In this document: positions 29,665 to 50,664 of the stretch, piece by piece
Position numbering within the stretch: position 1 is the first letter of the stretch
Layout: each line of letters begins with the position of its first letter
Assembly: GCA_015061665.1 (NCBI GenBank)
Contig: SUWC01000006.1
Coordinates: forward strand, 13,137-77,136
From: Lentisphaerota bacterium
GTDB taxonomy: Bacteria; Verrucomicrobiota; Kiritimatiellia; RFP12; UBA1067
Direction: 5' to 3'
DNA: 64,000 nucleotides
Program-made: the position numbers and the translations under genes
The notes under the pieces: generated by a model
What the model was told of the DNA's origin: nothing
The model's database searches: none
Seen by the model: the letters and a program-made list of their open reading frames with translations, nothing else

Positions 29665-29677
29665 CAGGAGATTCATC

Positions 29678-30415
29678 ATGCTTGACGCATTTGCCGCACG
29701 ACTTAGGCAGGGATTCAGGACCGGGGCGTTTCCTCCCGCGCCGCCGAATCTCCCCCCTGACTTCAGGGGACGTCCAAAGCTCGACGCCGGAATGACGCGC
29801 ACGGACGTCGAATCCGCCGCGAAGGAGTGTCCGTCGCTCGGTTCTCTGGGCTTTGACGAGAAGGGCGCGTTCCTGGACATGGGGCGCTGCATTTTCTGCG
29901 GACGCTGCGCGAAGGCGTGTCCGAAGATTTCCTTCACGCGCGAGTACAGGCTCGGCGTTTTCAGGCGCGAGGACCTTGTGGTTCGCGCAGGGGAGGGCGA
30001 ATACGCACCTCCGGAGCAGTCCGATCCCGAGGCGCTCGCGCTGCGCCATTCGTTTCTTCTGCGCGAAGTTTCGGCAGGGGGCTGCGGCGCGTGCGAGTTG
30101 GACGCAAACGTTCTGGGAACCCTTGCATGGGACTTCGGACGCTTCGGCATTCGTTTTGCGGCGTCGCCGCGCCATGCGGATGCGATATACCTTACCGGGC
30201 CTGTATCCAAGAACATGCAGTTGGCGCTCGACAAGACGTATGCCGCCGCTCCATATCCGAAGTTCCTGATTGCGGCTGGCGCGTGCGCGATATCGGGCGG
30301 ACTTTATGCGCAGGGCAAGCTTCCTGCGGTGCCTTCACTGTTCATTCCTGGCTGTCCGCCACATCCAGCGACGACACTGGATGCGCTTTTGCGTTTCACG
30401 GGCCGTCGCGCTTGA
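29678..30415 (+). CDS. fused ferredoxin-like (HycF/EchF-type) + NuoB/HycG-like small-subunit Fe-S protein
   Basis: AGGAG SD, ATG 29678. CIFCGRCAKACP (4Fe-4S motif), then GGCGACE, SPRHADAIYLTGP, GACAISGG, PGCPP (NuoB/HycG proximal-cluster motifs). Confidence 0.75.
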   Translation: MLDAFAARLRQGFRTGAFPPAPPNLPPDFRGRPKLDAGMTRTDVESAAKECPSLGSLGFDEKGAFLDMGRCIFCGRCAKACPKISFTREYRLGVFRREDLVVRAGEGEYAPPEQSDPEALALRHSFLLREVSAGGCGACELDANVLGTLAWDFGRFGIRFAASPRHADAIYLTGPVSKNMQLALDKTYAAAPYPKFLIAAGACAISGGLYAQGKLPAVPSLFIPGCPPHPATTLDALLRFTGRRA

Positions 30416-30427
30416 CTCTTTGCCCCG

Positions 30428-30441
30428 TTTTTTGGTATCAT
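30428..30441 (+). promoter_or_regulatory. extended -10 promoter motif TTTTTTGGTATCAT upstream of nusA
   Basis: Recurrent motif with a TATCAT -10. A 76-nt leader runs to ATG 30518. Confidence 0.5.
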
Positions 30442-44825: not shown

Positions 44826-46148
44826 TCAGACGACCTGTTCGCCCAGAGCATCGGCAGGAGGCGTGTCGAACACAGGGATGTCCGCGTACGGATCGGGTGA
44901 ATTGTCCGACGGGAGGGACTTCATGTAGGCGTCCATCGCCTCTGCGACCTTCTTTGCGCTAGCGACCGCCTCCACGACGGTGCGCGCACCTGCGACTGCA
45001 TCGCCGCCCGCGAACACGCCAGGGCGCGTCGTAGCTCCATTTTCATCGACGGATAGGAGCCCCTTGGCGCTGCGTGTCATTGCGCAGGAGCCATCAGAGC
45101 CCGTGTCGACCTCGTAGGAGCTTCCCTGGGAGACGGAGACTATCACGCCGGTGTGCGGGTAGAGCTTCTCGGTTCCCGGGATTGTCGACCACTTGCCGTC
45201 GTCGCCAAGTCTGTTATCAATGCAGATGATGCCGTTGTGCCTGATCTCGACGGGCTGGAGTCCCCAGCGGAAGCCGACTCCTTCGAGCTTCGCGTAGCTC
45301 ATCTCGTACGCGCTGGCAGTGGCGTCCTTCTCGGTGCGGCGCCCGTAGCAGGTGACGTGCCTTGCGCCATTGCGGATTGCCGTGCGCGCGCAGTCCATCG
45401 CCGAGTTGCCAACGCCTATGACGGCAATGTCGTTGCCAAGGCTCTTGAAGCCCGTCGGGTTGGCGAGGTAGTCGATTCCGAACGCGACGTTTCCGAGGGT
45501 TTCGCCCTTGATGTTCATCGCGTTCGCCTTCCAGAGGCCCGCGCCGATGAAAACGGACTTGTATCCGTCCCGGAAAAGGTCGTCGATTGTGATCGTCTTC
45601 CCGATCGTTGTGTTCGTCCTGACCTTTATGTCCTTGAGCTGCAGGTGGCGGTACTGGAAGTCGTCGAGCACGGCGTCCGGCAGGCGGAAGTTGGGTATGC
45701 CGTAACGCATCATTCCGCCGATCCTGTCGCGTGCCTCGAAGATCGTGACGTCATATCCCCAGCGTGCGAGCAGGACTGCGATGGTGAGCCCTGCGGGGCC
45801 GGAACCCACGACGGCGGCCTTCATTCCATTTGGCTTTGCGGGCCCCTTGACCATTTTGTTGGCAAACGTCGTCGAGATGTAGCTCTCAATCACGCTGAAG
45901 TGGACGGGCGAGCCATTGATGCCGCGCACGCAGTGCCCCTCGCACTGTTTCCCGTGGTTGCAGACGAGCGCGCAGACAGTTGTGAGGGGGTTGTTTTCGA
46001 AAAGCTTCCATCCAGCGGCGTCAAGGTCGCCTGCCTTGAGAAGTTTGATGACGTTCGGGATGTCAGTCTTTATCGGACATCCCTCCTGGCACCTCGGCCG
46101 GGGGCATCCAAGGCACATCTTTGCTTCATCCATTACATGTAGTGCCAT
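44826..46148 (-). CDS. GltD/NfnB/SudA-family NAD(P)H-dependent Fe-S flavoprotein oxidoreductase
   Basis: N-terminal Cys clusters CLGCPRPRCQEGCP and CALVCNHGKQCEGHC, FAD fold VVGSGPAGLT, RYGIPNFRLP, second Rossmann VIGVGNSAMDCA, GVFAGGD. Confidence 0.75.
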   Translation of the reverse strand: MALHVMDEAKMCLGCPRPRCQEGCPIKTDIPNVIKLLKAGDLDAAGWKLFENNPLTTVCALVCNHGKQCEGHCVRGINGSPVHFSVIESYISTTFANKMVKGPAKPNGMKAAVVGSGPAGLTIAVLLARWGYDVTIFEARDRIGGMMRYGIPNFRLPDAVLDDFQYRHLQLKDIKVRTNTTIGKTITIDDLFRDGYKSVFIGAGLWKANAMNIKGETLGNVAFGIDYLANPTGFKSLGNDIAVIGVGNSAMDCARTAIRNGARHVTCYGRRTEKDATASAYEMSYAKLEGVGFRWGLQPVEIRHNGIICIDNRLGDDGKWSTIPGTEKLYPHTGVIVSVSQGSSYEVDTGSDGSCAMTRSAKGLLSVDENGATTRPGVFAGGDAVAGARTVVEAVASAKKVAEAMDAYMKSLPSDNSPDPYADIPVFDTPPADALGEQVV

Positions 46149-46214
46149 ATTGTCTCCTTTAATCCTCTTTTTTCCACAAGGTATCTTTAAATCGCATCAT
46201 TGGCGAGAAGGGGG

Positions 46215-47042
46215 CTAAGCTAACTGAAGAAGATGCTTGGCGTTGGCGGAGAAAACGCATTCCAAGTCTTCGGTTGGGCGAATAGACTCCACCCACGCAG
46301 CGGAGCGCACCGGACTAGTCCACGGGAAGTCGGTTCCGAAAAGCAGCTGTTCCCTAGGCCATTCGCGGAGGACCCGCTGTTGCTCTGGTTTGCCGTGGTC
46401 GCGCTCCAAGGCACTCGTATCGGCGTAGCATCCTAGGTCGATCAGCTCGTCGGTTGCGTGTGGCTCGTACCCAGCGCATCCGCCTAGGTGAGCGGCAATG
46501 AACTTAAGACCCTTGACGTTTTTAAGGAGCGTGGCGACTTCCTTTGGGCCGCATGCGTCAAATCTGTCGGGATAGCCGATGTCGAAGCCACAGTGACACT
46601 GGACGACAAGCCCGAGGTCGGCGATTTTCCGGAACATTGGCCAGACGGACGGATCGTCAAGCGAGAAATTCTGGTAGTAGGGATGGAACTTGATTCCCTT
46701 GATTCCATGGGATGAAATTTCGTCCAAATGAGCGTCGAGTTTCGGGTCCAGAGGATGCGCGGACGCGAACGGCACAATCATTCGAGGACTGCGCTCGTCA
46801 AGCGAACCGTCCATAAGAGCCAACGCATTCTGAAGGATGACTTCGTGGTGGCTTGGCTTCGTGGCGATTGGCAGCATGAACGAAACATCTATTCCGTCGC
46901 GCTGCATCGTGTCTAGGAGATTCTTTAGCGTACCGTCGCCATTGGGCTCAATGATTCCCTTGACGGATGACGTCATCATGGCCATGGCGCGAAAAGCCAC
47001 GGAATCGGGTATAAAACAGTGAGCGTGAACGTCAATCTTCAT
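46215..47042 (-). CDS. amidohydrolase-family (TIM-barrel metal-dependent hydrolase) protein
   Basis: MKIDVHAHCF (HxH motif at the N-terminus), GIKFHP, HCG, FGTDFPW. Confidence 0.6.
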   Translation of the reverse strand: MKIDVHAHCFIPDSVAFRAMAMMTSSVKGIIEPNGDGTLKNLLDTMQRDGIDVSFMLPIATKPSHHEVILQNALALMDGSLDERSPRMIVPFASAHPLDPKLDAHLDEISSHGIKGIKFHPYYQNFSLDDPSVWPMFRKIADLGLVVQCHCGFDIGYPDRFDACGPKEVATLLKNVKGLKFIAAHLGGCAGYEPHATDELIDLGCYADTSALERDHGKPEQQRVLREWPREQLLFGTDFPWTSPVRSAAWVESIRPTEDLECVFSANAKHLLQLA

Positions 47043-47084
47043 AACTAGTCTGTAATCCCTAAAATGCGCATAATGGGCGTTATG

Positions 47085-48356
47085 TCAACTAGATTTAAGG
47101 GCGGCCATTCTCTTGGCTATCGTCGCCTCATAGCCCTGCTCTGTCGGACGATAATAGTTCTTCGGAACGTTCATGTAGACTTGCTCCACGAAATGGTTTG
47201 CAAACGAATGCGGATACTTGTATTCCGTAACCCGCTCGGACCCAATCGCCTTGACGTGCTTGTTCTTCAGGTGCTCGGGAATCGGCTGGATGGCACCCGA
47301 TTCGACGTCGGCCATAGCTTCGCTTATGGCCATGCAGCTTGCGTTGGACTTTGGAGCCGTCGCAAGGTAGGTAGTTGCCTGGGCGAGGTTGATTGCGCAT
47401 TCGGGCATGCCTACAAACTCGCACGCCTGCATCGCAGCGACTGCGACTGAGATCCCGCGCGGGTCTGCGTTGCCTATGTCCTCGCTTGCGCTGATGACAA
47501 GGCGGCGGGCGATGAAACGGGGATCCTCGCCGGCAGTCAGCATCTTGCCGAGCCAGTAGATCGCGGCATCTGGATCACTCCCGCGGATCGACTTGATGAA
47601 TGCAGAGATGGTGTCGTAGTGTCCGTCTTCCTTCTTGTCGTATCTCACCTGGCGTCGCTGCACGCATTCCTGGATTACGTCCAAGGTCAGATGGATCTTT
47701 CCGTCCTCGCTGTAAGGCGTCGAACGCATTGCGATTTCCAATGCGGTCAGCGCGTGGCGCGCATCGCCGTCGCAGATCGTCGAAAGGAACTCCTTGGCGT
47801 CGTCGTCGAAAACCGTCGGCATCTTTCCGAAGCCTCGGACAGAGTCGCCTAGCGCCCTTTCCAGCAGCTTAGCGATGTCTGGCGGCGAAATCGGATGAAG
47901 TTCAAATACCAGCGAACGCGATGTCAGCGGCGTGTTGATGAAGAAGTTCGGATTGTGCGTCGTCGCGCCGATTAGAACAACCGTGCCGTCCTCGACATAC
48001 GGCAGAAGGACATCCTGCTGGCTTTTGTTGAAGCGATGGATTTCGTCGATAAAGAGGATCGTGCCCTTTCCGCCAAGCTCGTTACGCGCACGATCGCAAA
48101 TCTTGCGGATATCGGCGACGCCTGAAACAACTCCCGAGAGGCGTGTGAAATTTCTCTTTGTCGACTGCGCGATGACTTCGGCCAGCGTCGTCTTGCCGCA
48201 ACCGGGCGGACCGTAGAAAATGACGTTGGTCAGCCGGTCCGCCTCGATTACCCTTCTCAGCAGCTTGCCCTCGCCGAGTATATGCGACTGCCCGACGACC
48301 TCTTCGATCGTCTGCGGCCTCATGCGGGCGGCAAGCGGAGAAGAGTCGTCCGTCAT
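47085..48356 (-). CDS. rarA: replication-associated recombination protein A (AAA+ ATPase)
   Basis: MRPQTIEEVVGQSHILG, GPPGCGKTTLA, LFIDEIHRFNK, GATTHNP, and a MgsA C-terminal region YDTISAFIKSIRGSDPDAA. Confidence 0.9.
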   Translation of the reverse strand: MTDDSSPLAARMRPQTIEEVVGQSHILGEGKLLRRVIEADRLTNVIFYGPPGCGKTTLAEVIAQSTKRNFTRLSGVVSGVADIRKICDRARNELGGKGTILFIDEIHRFNKSQQDVLLPYVEDGTVVLIGATTHNPNFFINTPLTSRSLVFELHPISPPDIAKLLERALGDSVRGFGKMPTVFDDDAKEFLSTICDGDARHALTALEIAMRSTPYSEDGKIHLTLDVIQECVQRRQVRYDKKEDGHYDTISAFIKSIRGSDPDAAIYWLGKMLTAGEDPRFIARRLVISASEDIGNADPRGISVAVAAMQACEFVGMPECAINLAQATTYLATAPKSNASCMAISEAMADVESGAIQPIPEHLKNKHVKAIGSERVTEYKYPHSFANHFVEQVYMNVPKNYYRPTEQGYEATIAKRMAALKSS

Positions 48357-49462
48357 TGTTCAGTGTAGACGTACCAGTTCAGAATGAACCTGCCAATTGC
48401 CTTGCGCAGCGCGTAGATTCGATTTAGCTGGGTCGCAGGAGCCGCGTACACAAGGACGGTCTGGGTCTTTTCGGAGAGATCGCCGATCTTGGCTGCCGCT
48501 TCTGCGTCGGACTTGAACGGATGCTCTACGATTGTAAGCTTCGGGTCAAGCGTGCCCTCTCCGCTCCAGTCCTCAAGGATTTCCGTTACTACGCACGATC
48601 CATCCGCCTTCATGTGCACTTCGGGCGGCTGGCACAGACGTTGCGTACGGTCGCGCCAGCTTTCCTTCGGCAGATATGCCTGGAAAAACAGTTCGCCTTC
48701 CTTGTAGCCGTTCATCTTGACCTTGCGCGAGTCCAGAACTGACAGAGCATTGGCCGCGGTGATGGCCTCGGAAAGAGCAAGCTCTCCTGAGAACGTCGGG
48801 GTTACGTCGAGTTCGGGCCCTTCCTCGGCGGTCTTTTTGAGCGCGGCAAAGGCCTCGGGGAGTTTGCCAGGTTCGAAGACGGGGGTGACTGGCTTGTTAA
48901 GCGACTTGCCCTTCCATTTAAACGTAAACGCGCGGCGCTCGCCCTTGGTGAACTCCGCTGCCGGCCGGAAGCGTCCGTACGTTGCCGACTGGTCGAGCGC
49001 ATCGTCGAACTGCATCAGCGACTGTGGCATGCTGTAAAGCGCAAAGACGGCGAGCGGCATGTTGGTTGACGCATCGGGGATCCCGCTCGCATCGCGTTTC
49101 CCGCCAGTGTACGAAATGGGAACGAGCGGTTCGCCGAACGTCTCTTTGATCAGCGTGTCAAACGCTGGCGTCATCTCAAGTTCGTCGCCGACAGGCCACA
49201 GGCGCGCCGACGCCGCGTCTATGGGCTTGCCCGTCGGGATTCCGGCCTTTTCGAACGCCTTGGCGATTTCTCCGACATCGGCGTCTGTCAGAAAGAGCGT
49301 TTCGTAGTCGTGGTCGGAATCCTTGCCGGCGAAGAGGAACTCGATCTGCGCGCTCGTCGGCATTCCGACGGCCGTCGCAGTAAACGTGACCGAATGCTCT
49401 TCGGCGTTGTAGGAAACGGGGGAGGTTGCGGCGAGCGCAGCAGCAATGAAAAGCGATGTCAT
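48353..49462 (-). CDS. hypothetical secreted protein
   Basis: 369-aa ORF with a signal-like N-terminus MTSLFIAAALAA. Translationally coupled (ATGA overlaps) to both the aminotransferase and rarA. No motif recognised. Confidence 0.6.
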   Translation of the reverse strand: MTSLFIAAALAATSPVSYNAEEHSVTFTATAVGMPTSAQIEFLFAGKDSDHDYETLFLTDADVGEIAKAFEKAGIPTGKPIDAASARLWPVGDELEMTPAFDTLIKETFGEPLVPISYTGGKRDASGIPDASTNMPLAVFALYSMPQSLMQFDDALDQSATYGRFRPAAEFTKGERRAFTFKWKGKSLNKPVTPVFEPGKLPEAFAALKKTAEEGPELDVTPTFSGELALSEAITAANALSVLDSRKVKMNGYKEGELFFQAYLPKESWRDRTQRLCQPPEVHMKADGSCVVTEILEDWSGEGTLDPKLTIVEHPFKSDAEAAAKIGDLSEKTQTVLVYAAPATQLNRIYALRKAIGRFILNWYVYTEQ

Positions 49463-50664
49463 TTGAATTTCTCCATTGCGCGTTTGAATCCAGCTGCGCT
49501 GCGTGCGATTATCTTCTCGTCGACGCTGCAGCTGAGGCGGACATATCCTGCGAAGCCGAATCCCTTGCCGGTGACGACGAGTATCTTTTCCGCCAAAAGC
49601 GCATCAACGAACTTAAGGTCGTCTGCAACAGGGCTCTTGGCGAAGAAGTAGAAAGCGCCCTTCGGCATCTCGAACTCGATACCGGCGTCGGAAAGCACCT
49701 TTGCCATGAGCTTGCGGCGACGGTCGTAGATTTCGAGGTCAACGGTTTGGTCAAGAAGCGCAGCCGCGAGACGCTGCCCGATGACAGGCGAATTGACGTA
49801 GCCGAGCGTCCTGTTGGTAAGGGTTACGGCCGCAACGAGCTGCGGCTGTCCAGGCATCTGCGGGTTCGCGAGCAGGTATCCCACGCGCTCTCCGGCAAGC
49901 GAGAGCGTCTTGGAAAAGCTTCCGAGGACGACAGCCCACTTCGTTAGCGGAAGAACGGCCGGGACCTTTGCGCCGTCATAGGCAAACGCGCGGTAAGGTT
50001 CGTCGGAGAGGAGAAAGAGCGGCCTTGCGCCGGGGATTGACTCGCGTTCCGCGTTTACCTTGTCGACAAGCGCGGCAATCGCCTTCATGTCCTCCAGCGA
50101 ATATATCGCGCCAGTCGGATTGTTCGGTGAATTGACGATGATGGCGCGGGTCTTCGGCGTTATCGCCTTCTCGATTCCGGCCACGTCGGGACGGAACGTC
50201 GGAGGAAGCGAAGGAACCGCCTTGAGAACGCCGCCGAAGTGTCCGCAGTAGGCGCCGTATTCAACGAAGTACGGCGCAGGAGTGATGACCTCATCCCCCT
50301 TCTCGATGACCGCGCGGAAGAAGGAGACGAGCGCTCCTGCGGCGCCGACGGTCATTACGACGTCCTTGGACGCGACGGGCGTTTCCTGCTGCGTGGAAAG
50401 ATAGCTCGCCATCGCATCGCGGACGGCTGGAATGCCGGCGTTGGGACAATACCCCAGGCCCAGTGGACGCACCGCGCTTTCGGCTATAGAGGCAAGCACC
50501 TCGCGCGTCTTTGCCGGCGGCGGCACGTCAGGGTTGCCGAGCGAAAAATCGCACACCGCGTCCTCGCCGAACTCACGCTTGAGCTCGAGGCCCTTTTCAA
50601 ACATCTTGCGAATCCAGGAGCTGGAGCTCATGGAACTTTCAATTTCAGGTGTAACCGTTGTCAT
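49459..50664 (-). CDS. class I/II pyridoxal-phosphate-dependent aminotransferase (AspC/AlaA-like)
   Basis: NSPNNPTG, SFSKTLSLAGERVGY (PLP lysine), FGFAGYVRLS. Confidence 0.85.
   Translation of the reverse strand: MTTVTPEIESSMSSSSWIRKMFEKGLELKREFGEDAVCDFSLGNPDVPPPAKTREVLASIAESAVRPLGLGYCPNAGIPAVRDAMASYLSTQQETPVASKDVVMTVGAAGALVSFFRAVIEKGDEVITPAPYFVEYGAYCGHFGGVLKAVPSLPPTFRPDVAGIEKAITPKTRAIIVNSPNNPTGAIYSLEDMKAIAALVDKVNAERESIPGARPLFLLSDEPYRAFAYDGAKVPAVLPLTKWAVVLGSFSKTLSLAGERVGYLLANPQMPGQPQLVAAVTLTNRTLGYVNSPVIGQRLAAALLDQTVDLEIYDRRRKLMAKVLSDAGIEFEMPKGAFYFFAKSPVADDLKFVDALLAEKILVVTGKGFGFAGYVRLSCSVDEKIIARSAAGFKRAMEKFK

Follow-up and report, generated by a model that had tools for sequence, protein, structure and literature searches.

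The stretch of DNA analyzed here (the window, 64,000 nt) belongs to contig SUWC01000006.1 of GenBank assembly GCA_015061665.1, the genome of a Kiritimatiellia bacterium deposited as Lentisphaerota bacterium, and our subject is a gene within it, ehrS, together with the large-subunit gene that precedes it, ehrL. The open reading frame (ORF) of ehrS starts with ATG and runs with no stop or change of frame between its two halves, and the stop codon of ehrL falls 13 nt before it (Table 1). The product joins a ferredoxin-like half of the NuoI/HycF kind to a half of the NuoB/HycG kind, and it is in all probability the small subunit of an Ehr (Ech/energy-converting hydrogenase-related) complex, in a form predicted to carry two clusters on the electron path to the EhrL pocket.

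Domain searches recover both halves of the protein. In Pfam, Oxidored_q6 (PF01058, the NuoB family) covers residues 136–239 (E-value 3.4e-18), and only one Fer4 motif is found, at residues 66–82. Among the NCBIfam models, the HycF-type formate hydrogenlyase Fe-S subunit matches residues 1–104 over profile positions 1–110 of 180 (E-value 1.1e-13) and NuoB matches residues 135–239 (E-value 4.6e-23), all of these scores lying far under the equivalog cut-offs. When a profile built from 73 family members was compared with the PDB, the C-terminal half matched HycG (7z0s_G, E-value 4.9e-39) and MbhJ (6cfw_J, 5.6e-39), and the N-terminal half matched HycF (7z0s_F, 1.7e-20, residues 1–105 to 1–110) as well as NuoI and MbhN. 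An AlphaFold2 (AF2) model made from the 73-member alignment has a mean predicted local distance difference test score of 92.9 and a predicted template modeling score of 0.89, and a Foldseek search with it returns HycG, NDUFS7/PSST and MbhJ as the top PDB matches. The preliminary description of this locus, made from the sequence without database searches, had read the product as a single polypeptide combining these two parts, and the uninterrupted ORF, the Fer4 and Oxidored_q6 domains and the profile matches to solved structures all bear this out. Four residues of the N-terminus (R8, T15, P19 and G31) are invariant in the 73 sequences; a membrane-proximal amphipathic helix in this position has been described for HycF and for every structure within the complex I superfamily (PMC9474812).

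The cysteines of the two halves tell different stories. The second CxxCxxCxxxCP motif is intact, and the four proximal-cluster cysteines of the NuoB-like half, which had been picked out from the sequence, align to the cluster motifs of HycG and MbhJ in the 73-member profile. The first ferredoxin motif, on the other hand, is down to its final Cys-Pro: when EhrS is aligned to E. coli NuoI (sequence taken from NC_000913), C60, C63 and C66 of NuoI fall on R42, V45 and A48, and only C51 is left, aligned to C70. As proposed in the preliminary description, the cysteine set of the ferredoxin half therefore suffices for one of two clusters. The protein thereby falls outside the definition of a 2x[4Fe-4S] NuoI/HycF/EchF subunit, which has two complete CxxCxxCxxxCP motifs and eight cysteines.

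Table 1 Features of the ehrL–ehrS locus, with the Ehr subunits A–D found elsewhere in the same genome. Positions are those of the window unless a contig is named; identities are to the proteins of the Kiritimatiellia locus L004.
Feature	Position	Strand	Basis	Identity to L004
ehrL, NuoD/HycE-like large subunit (L), 384 aa	28510..29664	+	PF00346, HycE alignment	70%
Shine-Dalgarno-like AGGAG, 7 nt 5' of ehrS ATG	29666..29670	+	Direct reading of sequence	
ehrS, fused NuoI/HycF-like and NuoB/HycG-like Ehr small subunit (S), 245 aa	29678..30415	+	ORF, Pfam, NCBIfam, PDB profile matches, AF2, Foldseek	74%
EhrS N-terminal helix (residues 2–11), then long loop; counterpart of the HycF/NuoI amphipathic helix	29678..29710	+	AF2: helix 2–11, coil to residue 32	
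Degenerate first ferredoxin motif, residues 40–52, TRTDVESAAKECP; C51-P52 alone left	29795..29833	+	Alignment to E. coli NuoI	
Intact second motif CIFCGRCAKACP, residues 71–82 (C71, C74, C77, C81)	29888..29923	+	Conservation, NuoI mapping	
Linker, residues 105–125, from ferredoxin core to NuoB-like domain	29990..30052	+	HycF match ends at 104–105; HycG match begins at profile position 112 (HycG residue 24)	
NuoB/HycG-like domain: C136 and C139 (GGCGACE), C203 (GACAISGG), C226 (PGCPP)	30053..30397	+	PF01058, HycG/MbhJ alignment	
Subunit A	contig C160			63%
Subunit B	contig C160			68%
Subunit C	contig C160			67%
Subunit D	contig C160			63%

The family to which EhrS belongs is large and widespread. 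A word-seeded homolog search returned 7988 significant homologs of about 245 aa, the best 120 of which are 243–264 aa long and show 69–100% identity at 98–100% coverage; when representatives at 50% identity were searched exhaustively, 90 clusters were obtained at E ≤ 1e-30, and at least 546 loci encoding a homolog, in more than 12 phyla, came out of a scan in which each species was represented by a single genome. Our counts of operons, cysteines and neighboring genes rest on the best 80 of these at least 546 loci, which are drawn from Kiritimatiellota, Lentisphaerota, Planctomycetota, Verrucomicrobiota, Acidobacteriota (Holophagaceae, Geothrix), Geobacteraceae, Desulfovibrionaceae, Myxococcota, Elusimicrobiota, Spirochaetota, Omnitrophota, Cloacimonadota, Cyanobacteriota (UBA8530) and others. 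The closest relatives among the matches listed are metagenome-assembled genomes (MAGs) of gut and rumen Kiritimatiellia, at 72–76% identity. An ehrL homolog lies directly upstream of ehrS in 75 of the 80 loci, and 66 of them hold a full A-B-C-D-L-S set, in which A and D are antiporter-like, B is NuoH-like and C is HyfE-like; a second copy of A is present in Geobacteraceae, Holophagae and some other loci. In the Kiritimatiellia MAG L004 the six genes are contiguous and encode proteins of 563, 296, 229, 409, 381 and 245 aa, in the order A to S.

This gene set is that of the Ehr complex named in Geobacter sulfurreducens, with its subunits EhrA–D, EhrL and EhrS (PMC7894505), whose genes there are GSU0739–0745 (Coppi 2005, Marreiros et al. 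2013). Published discussions place the complex, as a relative without Ni-Fe, beside group 4 hydrogenases and complex I (PMC6349859, PMC10284858). The system of the window has the NuoI–NuoB fusion, a Ni-Fe-less NuoD/HycE-like L subunit, four membrane subunits encoded on another contig and orthology to Geobacter: EhrS is 47–53% identical over its full length to the proteins of five Geobacteraceae loci (L035, L044, L051, L084 and L088), whose operon is the same and whose proteins fall with it in one family tree. The fusion, put forward in the preliminary description as unusual on the grounds that the two subunits are usually encoded separately, turns out to be the rule in this family and is already published, as the section of PMC6349859 that treats it (Supplementary Note 4, citing Marreiros et al. 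2013) reports a fused NuoI–NuoB small subunit as in the Ehr of Firmicutes and hyperthermophiles. In the accessible literature, which does not include the survey of Marreiros et al. 2013, no statement was found of Ehr small subunits with a single ferredoxin cluster or of a recurrent loss. The protein is a reduced, modest variant of a described family and no new kind of enzyme; with family and fusion known, the reduction in clusters is informative and unsurprising.

The conservation of the cysteines was followed in a close set of 22 orthologs and in a family set of 84 members (the window, the 80 genome loci and three metagenome loci). Eight cysteines (C51, C71, C74, C77, C136, C139, C203 and C226) are invariant in the close set, and C51-P52, C71, C74, C77 and the four NuoB-type cysteines are kept in 84 of 84 family members. 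The remaining cysteine of the second motif, C81, is present in about 90% of the close orthologs and is missing from P0016 and P0120. A complete first motif, Cx3-4CxxCxxxCP, is found in 62 of the 84 family members (for example CPAGCRTCADVCP in Geobacter), so that its reduction is specific to certain lineages and no trait of the family; in the other 22 it is wholly or partly lost. In the window protein R42, V45 and A48 stand in for the three lost cysteines; in its clade the region is variable except for C51-P52, and no substitute ligands are evident.

When the motif columns are left out of the tree, the loss of the first motif takes at least eight changes on it, at least five of which are forced by well-supported branches. 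One loss covers the Kiritimatiellia clade as a whole (10 sequences), two or three fall in Lentisphaerota and one in an Elusimicrobia clade (4 sequences), with single cases in Omnitrophota, one Planctomycetaceae and one deltaproteobacterial MAG. The tree thus indicates that the Kiritimatiellia clade and at least four other lineages lost the motif independently. Of the two clusters in a 2x[4Fe-4S] ferredoxin fold, one is ligated by Cys I–III of motif 1 and Cys IV of motif 2. Among the 22 proteins whose first motif is reduced, 11 are without the latter cysteine, C81 in EhrS, versus 1 of the 62 with a full motif (Fisher p = 4e-7), and this raw co-loss is the pattern expected from the loss of a whole cluster, because the positions belong to a shared ligand set.

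The identity of the lost cluster can be approached through the alignment to NuoI, in which C71, C74 and C77 of EhrS correspond to C99, C102 and C105, and C81 corresponds to C109. Equivalent E. coli/ovine residues have been listed as F92/Y109 around cluster N6a and as C74/A91 and L116/E133 around cluster N6b (PMC8357420), and from these pairs the ovine numbering is that of E. coli plus 17; the residues listed around N6b, E. coli C74 and L116, flank C70 and the C-terminal strand. A review of NDUFS8 states that p.Ala159Asp adjoins "Cys126 coordinating cluster N6a" (PMC9783039), and since ovine Cys126 is E. coli C109, the last cysteine of motif 2, N6a would be held by Cys I–III of motif 1 and Cys IV of motif 2, which in turn assigns Cys IV of motif 1 and Cys I–III of motif 2 to N6b. 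By this mapping, the cluster missing from EhrS is probably the equivalent of N6a, the distal cluster that is fed by N5 in complex I and that corresponds to the outer cluster of HycF and MbhN in hydrogenases. The ferredoxin cluster that is retained, on C51, C71, C74 and C77, would be the equivalent of N6b, and C81 would be an orphaned ligand of the lost N6a-like cluster. EhrS of this clade is accordingly predicted to bind two [4Fe-4S] clusters, not three. The order of clusters in complex I is N5-N6a-N6b-N2 (PMC10068793), and because N6b is the immediate neighbor of N2, a working two-cluster wire, one step shorter, is plausible.

Some distant fused NuoI–NuoB proteins go further. Six members of alignment A2 (P0131, P0181, P0212, P0219, P0238 and P0270) are without all four NuoB-type cysteines, with sequences such as AGGDGSTE, GSDAISGG and PGNPVHP, and are also without the first motif, so that the N6b-like site alone is kept. 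Their sequences suggest that there are further cofactor-depleted relatives.

The partner subunit had been described as a large subunit without a canonical Ni-Fe site, and the alignment of EhrL to structurally characterized relatives agrees. The protein matches HycE residues 192–549 (7z0s_E), MbhL and Nqo4, and where HycE has its Ni-Fe cysteines, C241, C244, C531 and C534, EhrL has A, T, S and G; the group 4 [NiFe]-hydrogenase motifs L1 (RxCGxCxxxH) and L2 (DPCxxCxxR) are both absent. An alignment of 76 L sequences, which represent more than 12 phyla, shows three near-invariant motifs: HEVAVGPVHAGxIEPGHFRFQC, ETxAGDT (replacing RxCGxC) and, at the C-terminus, FP[LI]CNKSFNLSYCGxD. In the same sequences C59, D102, C166, C181, C371 and C380 are each at least 95% conserved. 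Because near-invariant motifs stand in place of those for Ni-Fe, the conservation suggests a putative active or metal site of a kind that has not been described.

EhrL of the window clade is also shorter than usual. A typical Ehr L subunit is about 490–510 aa long and has a NuoC-like N-terminal domain (PF00329 in L015, E-value 1.6e-9; a weak match in L035, 8e-4), and such an N-terminal fusion is reported for Margulisbacteria, Firmicutes and others. The L subunits of the window, L004, L010, L011 and L012 are about 380 aa long and without this domain, the window protein matching PF00346 alone. The NuoC-like domain is a frequent feature of Ehr L rather than a defining criterion.

There are no membrane-subunit genes in the window. 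The genome, which is 92% complete and in 177 contigs, contains two Proton_antipo_M matches and one NADHdh match, all clustered on contig C160, and with the L004 proteins as tblastn queries all four membrane subunits were located there. The two antiporter-like, one NuoH-like and one HyfE-like genes are in order and in open frames at about 45878–50420 of G000:C160 (5878–10420 of L009), and no L or S gene follows them. With A–D on C160 and L–S in the window, the Ehr operon of this genome is split over two contigs; in the close relatives L004 and L010 the six-gene operon is contiguous. Genes for a class-I tRNA synthetase (tRNA-synt_1b), a class-V aminotransferase and a topoisomerase flank the cluster on C160.

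The isolation of L and S in the window could mean that they form a stand-alone, soluble two-subunit redox protein, freed from the membrane arm and recruited for a cytoplasmic reaction. Other gut and rumen Kiritimatiellia lend this some color. In L003 the L–S pair also occurs alone, beside glycosyltransferase genes. In L001 (7134–8000) and L002 (233–1095), whose samples are independent of each other, a fragment of A (the N-terminal ~210–250 residues) has been fused by a deletion to the last ~60 residues of EhrL, at the junction …LNHAFLKGGLFLGAGSV/LRQTGPLVHAAVF…NLSYCGTDR, with B, C, D and most of L gone; ehrS nevertheless lies directly downstream of the junction as an intact ORF of 244 aa. The loss of the NuoC-like domain from L points the same way. 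However, the genome of the window has intact A–D orthologs on C160 that have diverged about as far as L and S, the N-terminal amphipathic helix and loop by which NuoI and HycF dock on the membrane arm are conserved, and L004 and L010 have all six genes together. The reading as a stand-alone soluble module did not hold against the finding of A–D on C160, and we consider it largely rejected and very unlikely.

The same rearranged loci could instead mark EhrS as a decaying, non-functional remnant, the loss of cysteines reflecting relaxed selection on a complex that is disappearing from gut and rumen Kiritimatiellia, an explanation to which we give even less credence. The operon is split in the window genome, pared down to L–S in L003 and largely deleted in L001 and L002, and in L011 (1–9000), a Kiritimatiellae MAG from yak omasum, C, D, L and S alone were detected upstream of the match, and the 9 kb available there showed no A or B; one cluster and the NuoC-like domain are gone as well. 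Such decay is hard to reconcile with the eight ligand cysteines and many other residues that stay invariant in a clade of 70–90% overall identity, with six Ehr genes that are all open and full length in the genome of the window, and with the same loss in at least five lineages that have complete operons (for example L056, L063 and L071 of Elusimicrobia, and L016 and L018 of Victivallaceae). An artifact, whether a missed stop or frameshift that fuses two genes or a miscalled first motif, has next to no chance of being correct and is rejected, as the ORF is uninterrupted, the same architecture recurs in about 8000 independently sourced proteins and at least 546 loci, and the degenerate motif is common to every ortholog of the clade.

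If EhrS acts as a two-cluster subunit of a complete Ehr complex, electrons from a soluble donor of low potential, reduced ferredoxin being the most likely, would enter at the N6b-like cluster, which would now be the surface-most one. They would then pass to the N2-like cluster in the NuoB domain and on to the conserved non-Ni-Fe pocket of EhrL, where the reduction of an acceptor would be coupled to ion translocation by subunits A–D; the N-terminal amphipathic helix and loop, having been retained, would anchor the subunit on the membrane arm as in NuoI and HycF. No conserved redox partner gene was found within 9 kb of the 80 Ehr operons, where the one recurring neighbor gene encodes an HTH_17–PTS_EIIA_2 regulator (19 loci), and this favors a generic soluble donor such as ferredoxin. 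The reduction of protons to H2 is unlikely because EhrL is without a Ni-Fe site, and menaquinone is unlikely as the acceptor because neither MenA nor MqnA was detected. Indeed, the genome of the window, at 92% completeness, gives no match to MenA (TIGR00751), MqnA (PF02621) or Rnf/Nqr (PF02508), and it has three [FeFe]-hydrogenase large-subunit-like genes, one on contig C52 and two on C112. This gene content is consistent with a quinone-less fermenter whose sole complex I-type module may be Ehr.

A more far-reaching version of this proposal, which we hold to be unlikely, is that the stripped-down Ehr, with two clusters and no NuoC-like domain, is the only ferredoxin-linked ion pump of the organism, with ferredoxin docking at the N6b-like cluster and the EhrL pocket (C59, D102, C371 and C380) performing an undescribed redox chemistry without H2 or quinone. 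If this were true, the recurrent loss would mark the N6a-like cluster as an adaptor for optional partners, outside the core machine.

At least five lineages have dropped the distal cluster independently and this clade has also dropped the NuoC-like domain, while in all of them the L pocket and the sites of the predicted N6b-like and N2-like clusters are strictly kept. This pattern defines the minimal electron path of Ehr, and it suggests where a donor docks. The two-cluster and three-cluster forms offer a concrete biochemical handle on Ehr, although the difference reveals no new chemistry by itself.

Several points weigh against the interpretation of EhrS as a working small subunit that has shed its N6a-like cluster. 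The N6a/N6b assignment is built on a sequence alignment and two literature tables. When phylogeny is controlled for, the co-loss of motif 1 and C81 is not significant (5–8 independent pairs, too few; median p about 0.6), so that their covariation is suggestive only, and the retention of C81 in about 90% of the close clade may leave room for a residual role. The fragmented or decaying operons of L001, L003 and L011 may mean that the complex is being lost in the clade rather than streamlined. With regard to physiology, the absence of MenA, MqnA and Rnf is uncertain because the genome is 92% complete, and donor, acceptor and ion pumping are putative in every Ehr complex (PMC6349859, PMC7894505, PMC10284858).

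Comparison with known systems places these features in context. Geobacter EhrS shares the NuoI–NuoB fusion, the gene order after ehrL and the six-subunit set, and its L subunit is likewise without the Ni-Fe CxxC motifs; it differs in that the Geobacter-type protein has a full first motif (Cx3-4CxxCxxxCP) and would bind three clusters, whereas window EhrS would bind two, and the window system is further set apart by an EhrL without the NuoC-like domain and by an operon on two contigs. The best matches among solved structures are HycF (1–110) and HycG (from residue 24) of the E. coli formate hydrogenlyase (PDB 7Z0S). HycF and EhrS both have the N-terminal amphipathic helix, and the proximal-cluster motifs of HycG match those of EhrS. 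However, the two are encoded as distinct polypeptides, HycF has two clusters and a C-terminal Cys4 metal site where EhrS has one ferredoxin cluster and no such extension, and their partner HycE has the Ni-Fe site that EhrL lacks.

In complex I, NuoI (N6a and N6b) and NuoB (N2) have the homologous fold, and the cysteines of EhrS map to the ligands of N6b and N2. The two complex I subunits are separate and both NuoI clusters are present, in contrast to the fused EhrS, from which the N6a equivalent appears to be gone. NuoB has a tandem CC where EhrS has the hydrogenase-type CxxC, and N6a is fed in complex I by the NuoEFG input module, an entry point that is absent from EhrS. The Mbh and Mbx/MBS systems of Pyrococcus furiosus (MbhN and MbhJ; PDB 6CFW and 6U8Y) resemble Ehr in that a group-4-hydrogenase-type module sits on a membrane arm of antiporter-like subunits; they differ in that the two parts are not fused, the NuoI-like subunit has two clusters and membrane subunits are far more numerous than in Ehr, and the similarity of MBS to the EhrS profile is weaker (6u8y_J, E-value 2.9e-27). 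MBS sets a precedent for a relative without Ni-Fe that uses a different acceptor.

Lastly, the surroundings of the Ehr genes give some indications of their regulation. At 19 of the 80 loci, in several phyla, a gene for a 233-aa protein with HTH_17 and PTS_EIIA_2 domains lies about 300 nt upstream of ehrA (for example at 1684–2382 of L027), and this protein is a candidate for a dedicated regulator of the Ehr operon; the gene is absent beside ehrL and ehrS of the window. A scan for promoters and terminators around ehrL and ehrS found nothing over background except for a promoter-like site of nusA, and there is no promoter-like site directly 5' of ehrL in the scanned region, where a histidine kinase gene ends 34 nt before ehrL. 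The nusA site is the best sigma-70-like match of the region, at 30412–30441 (TTGACT, 18 nt, TG-TATCAT; 10/12 matches), and it overlaps the stop codon of ehrS and lies 5' of nusA.

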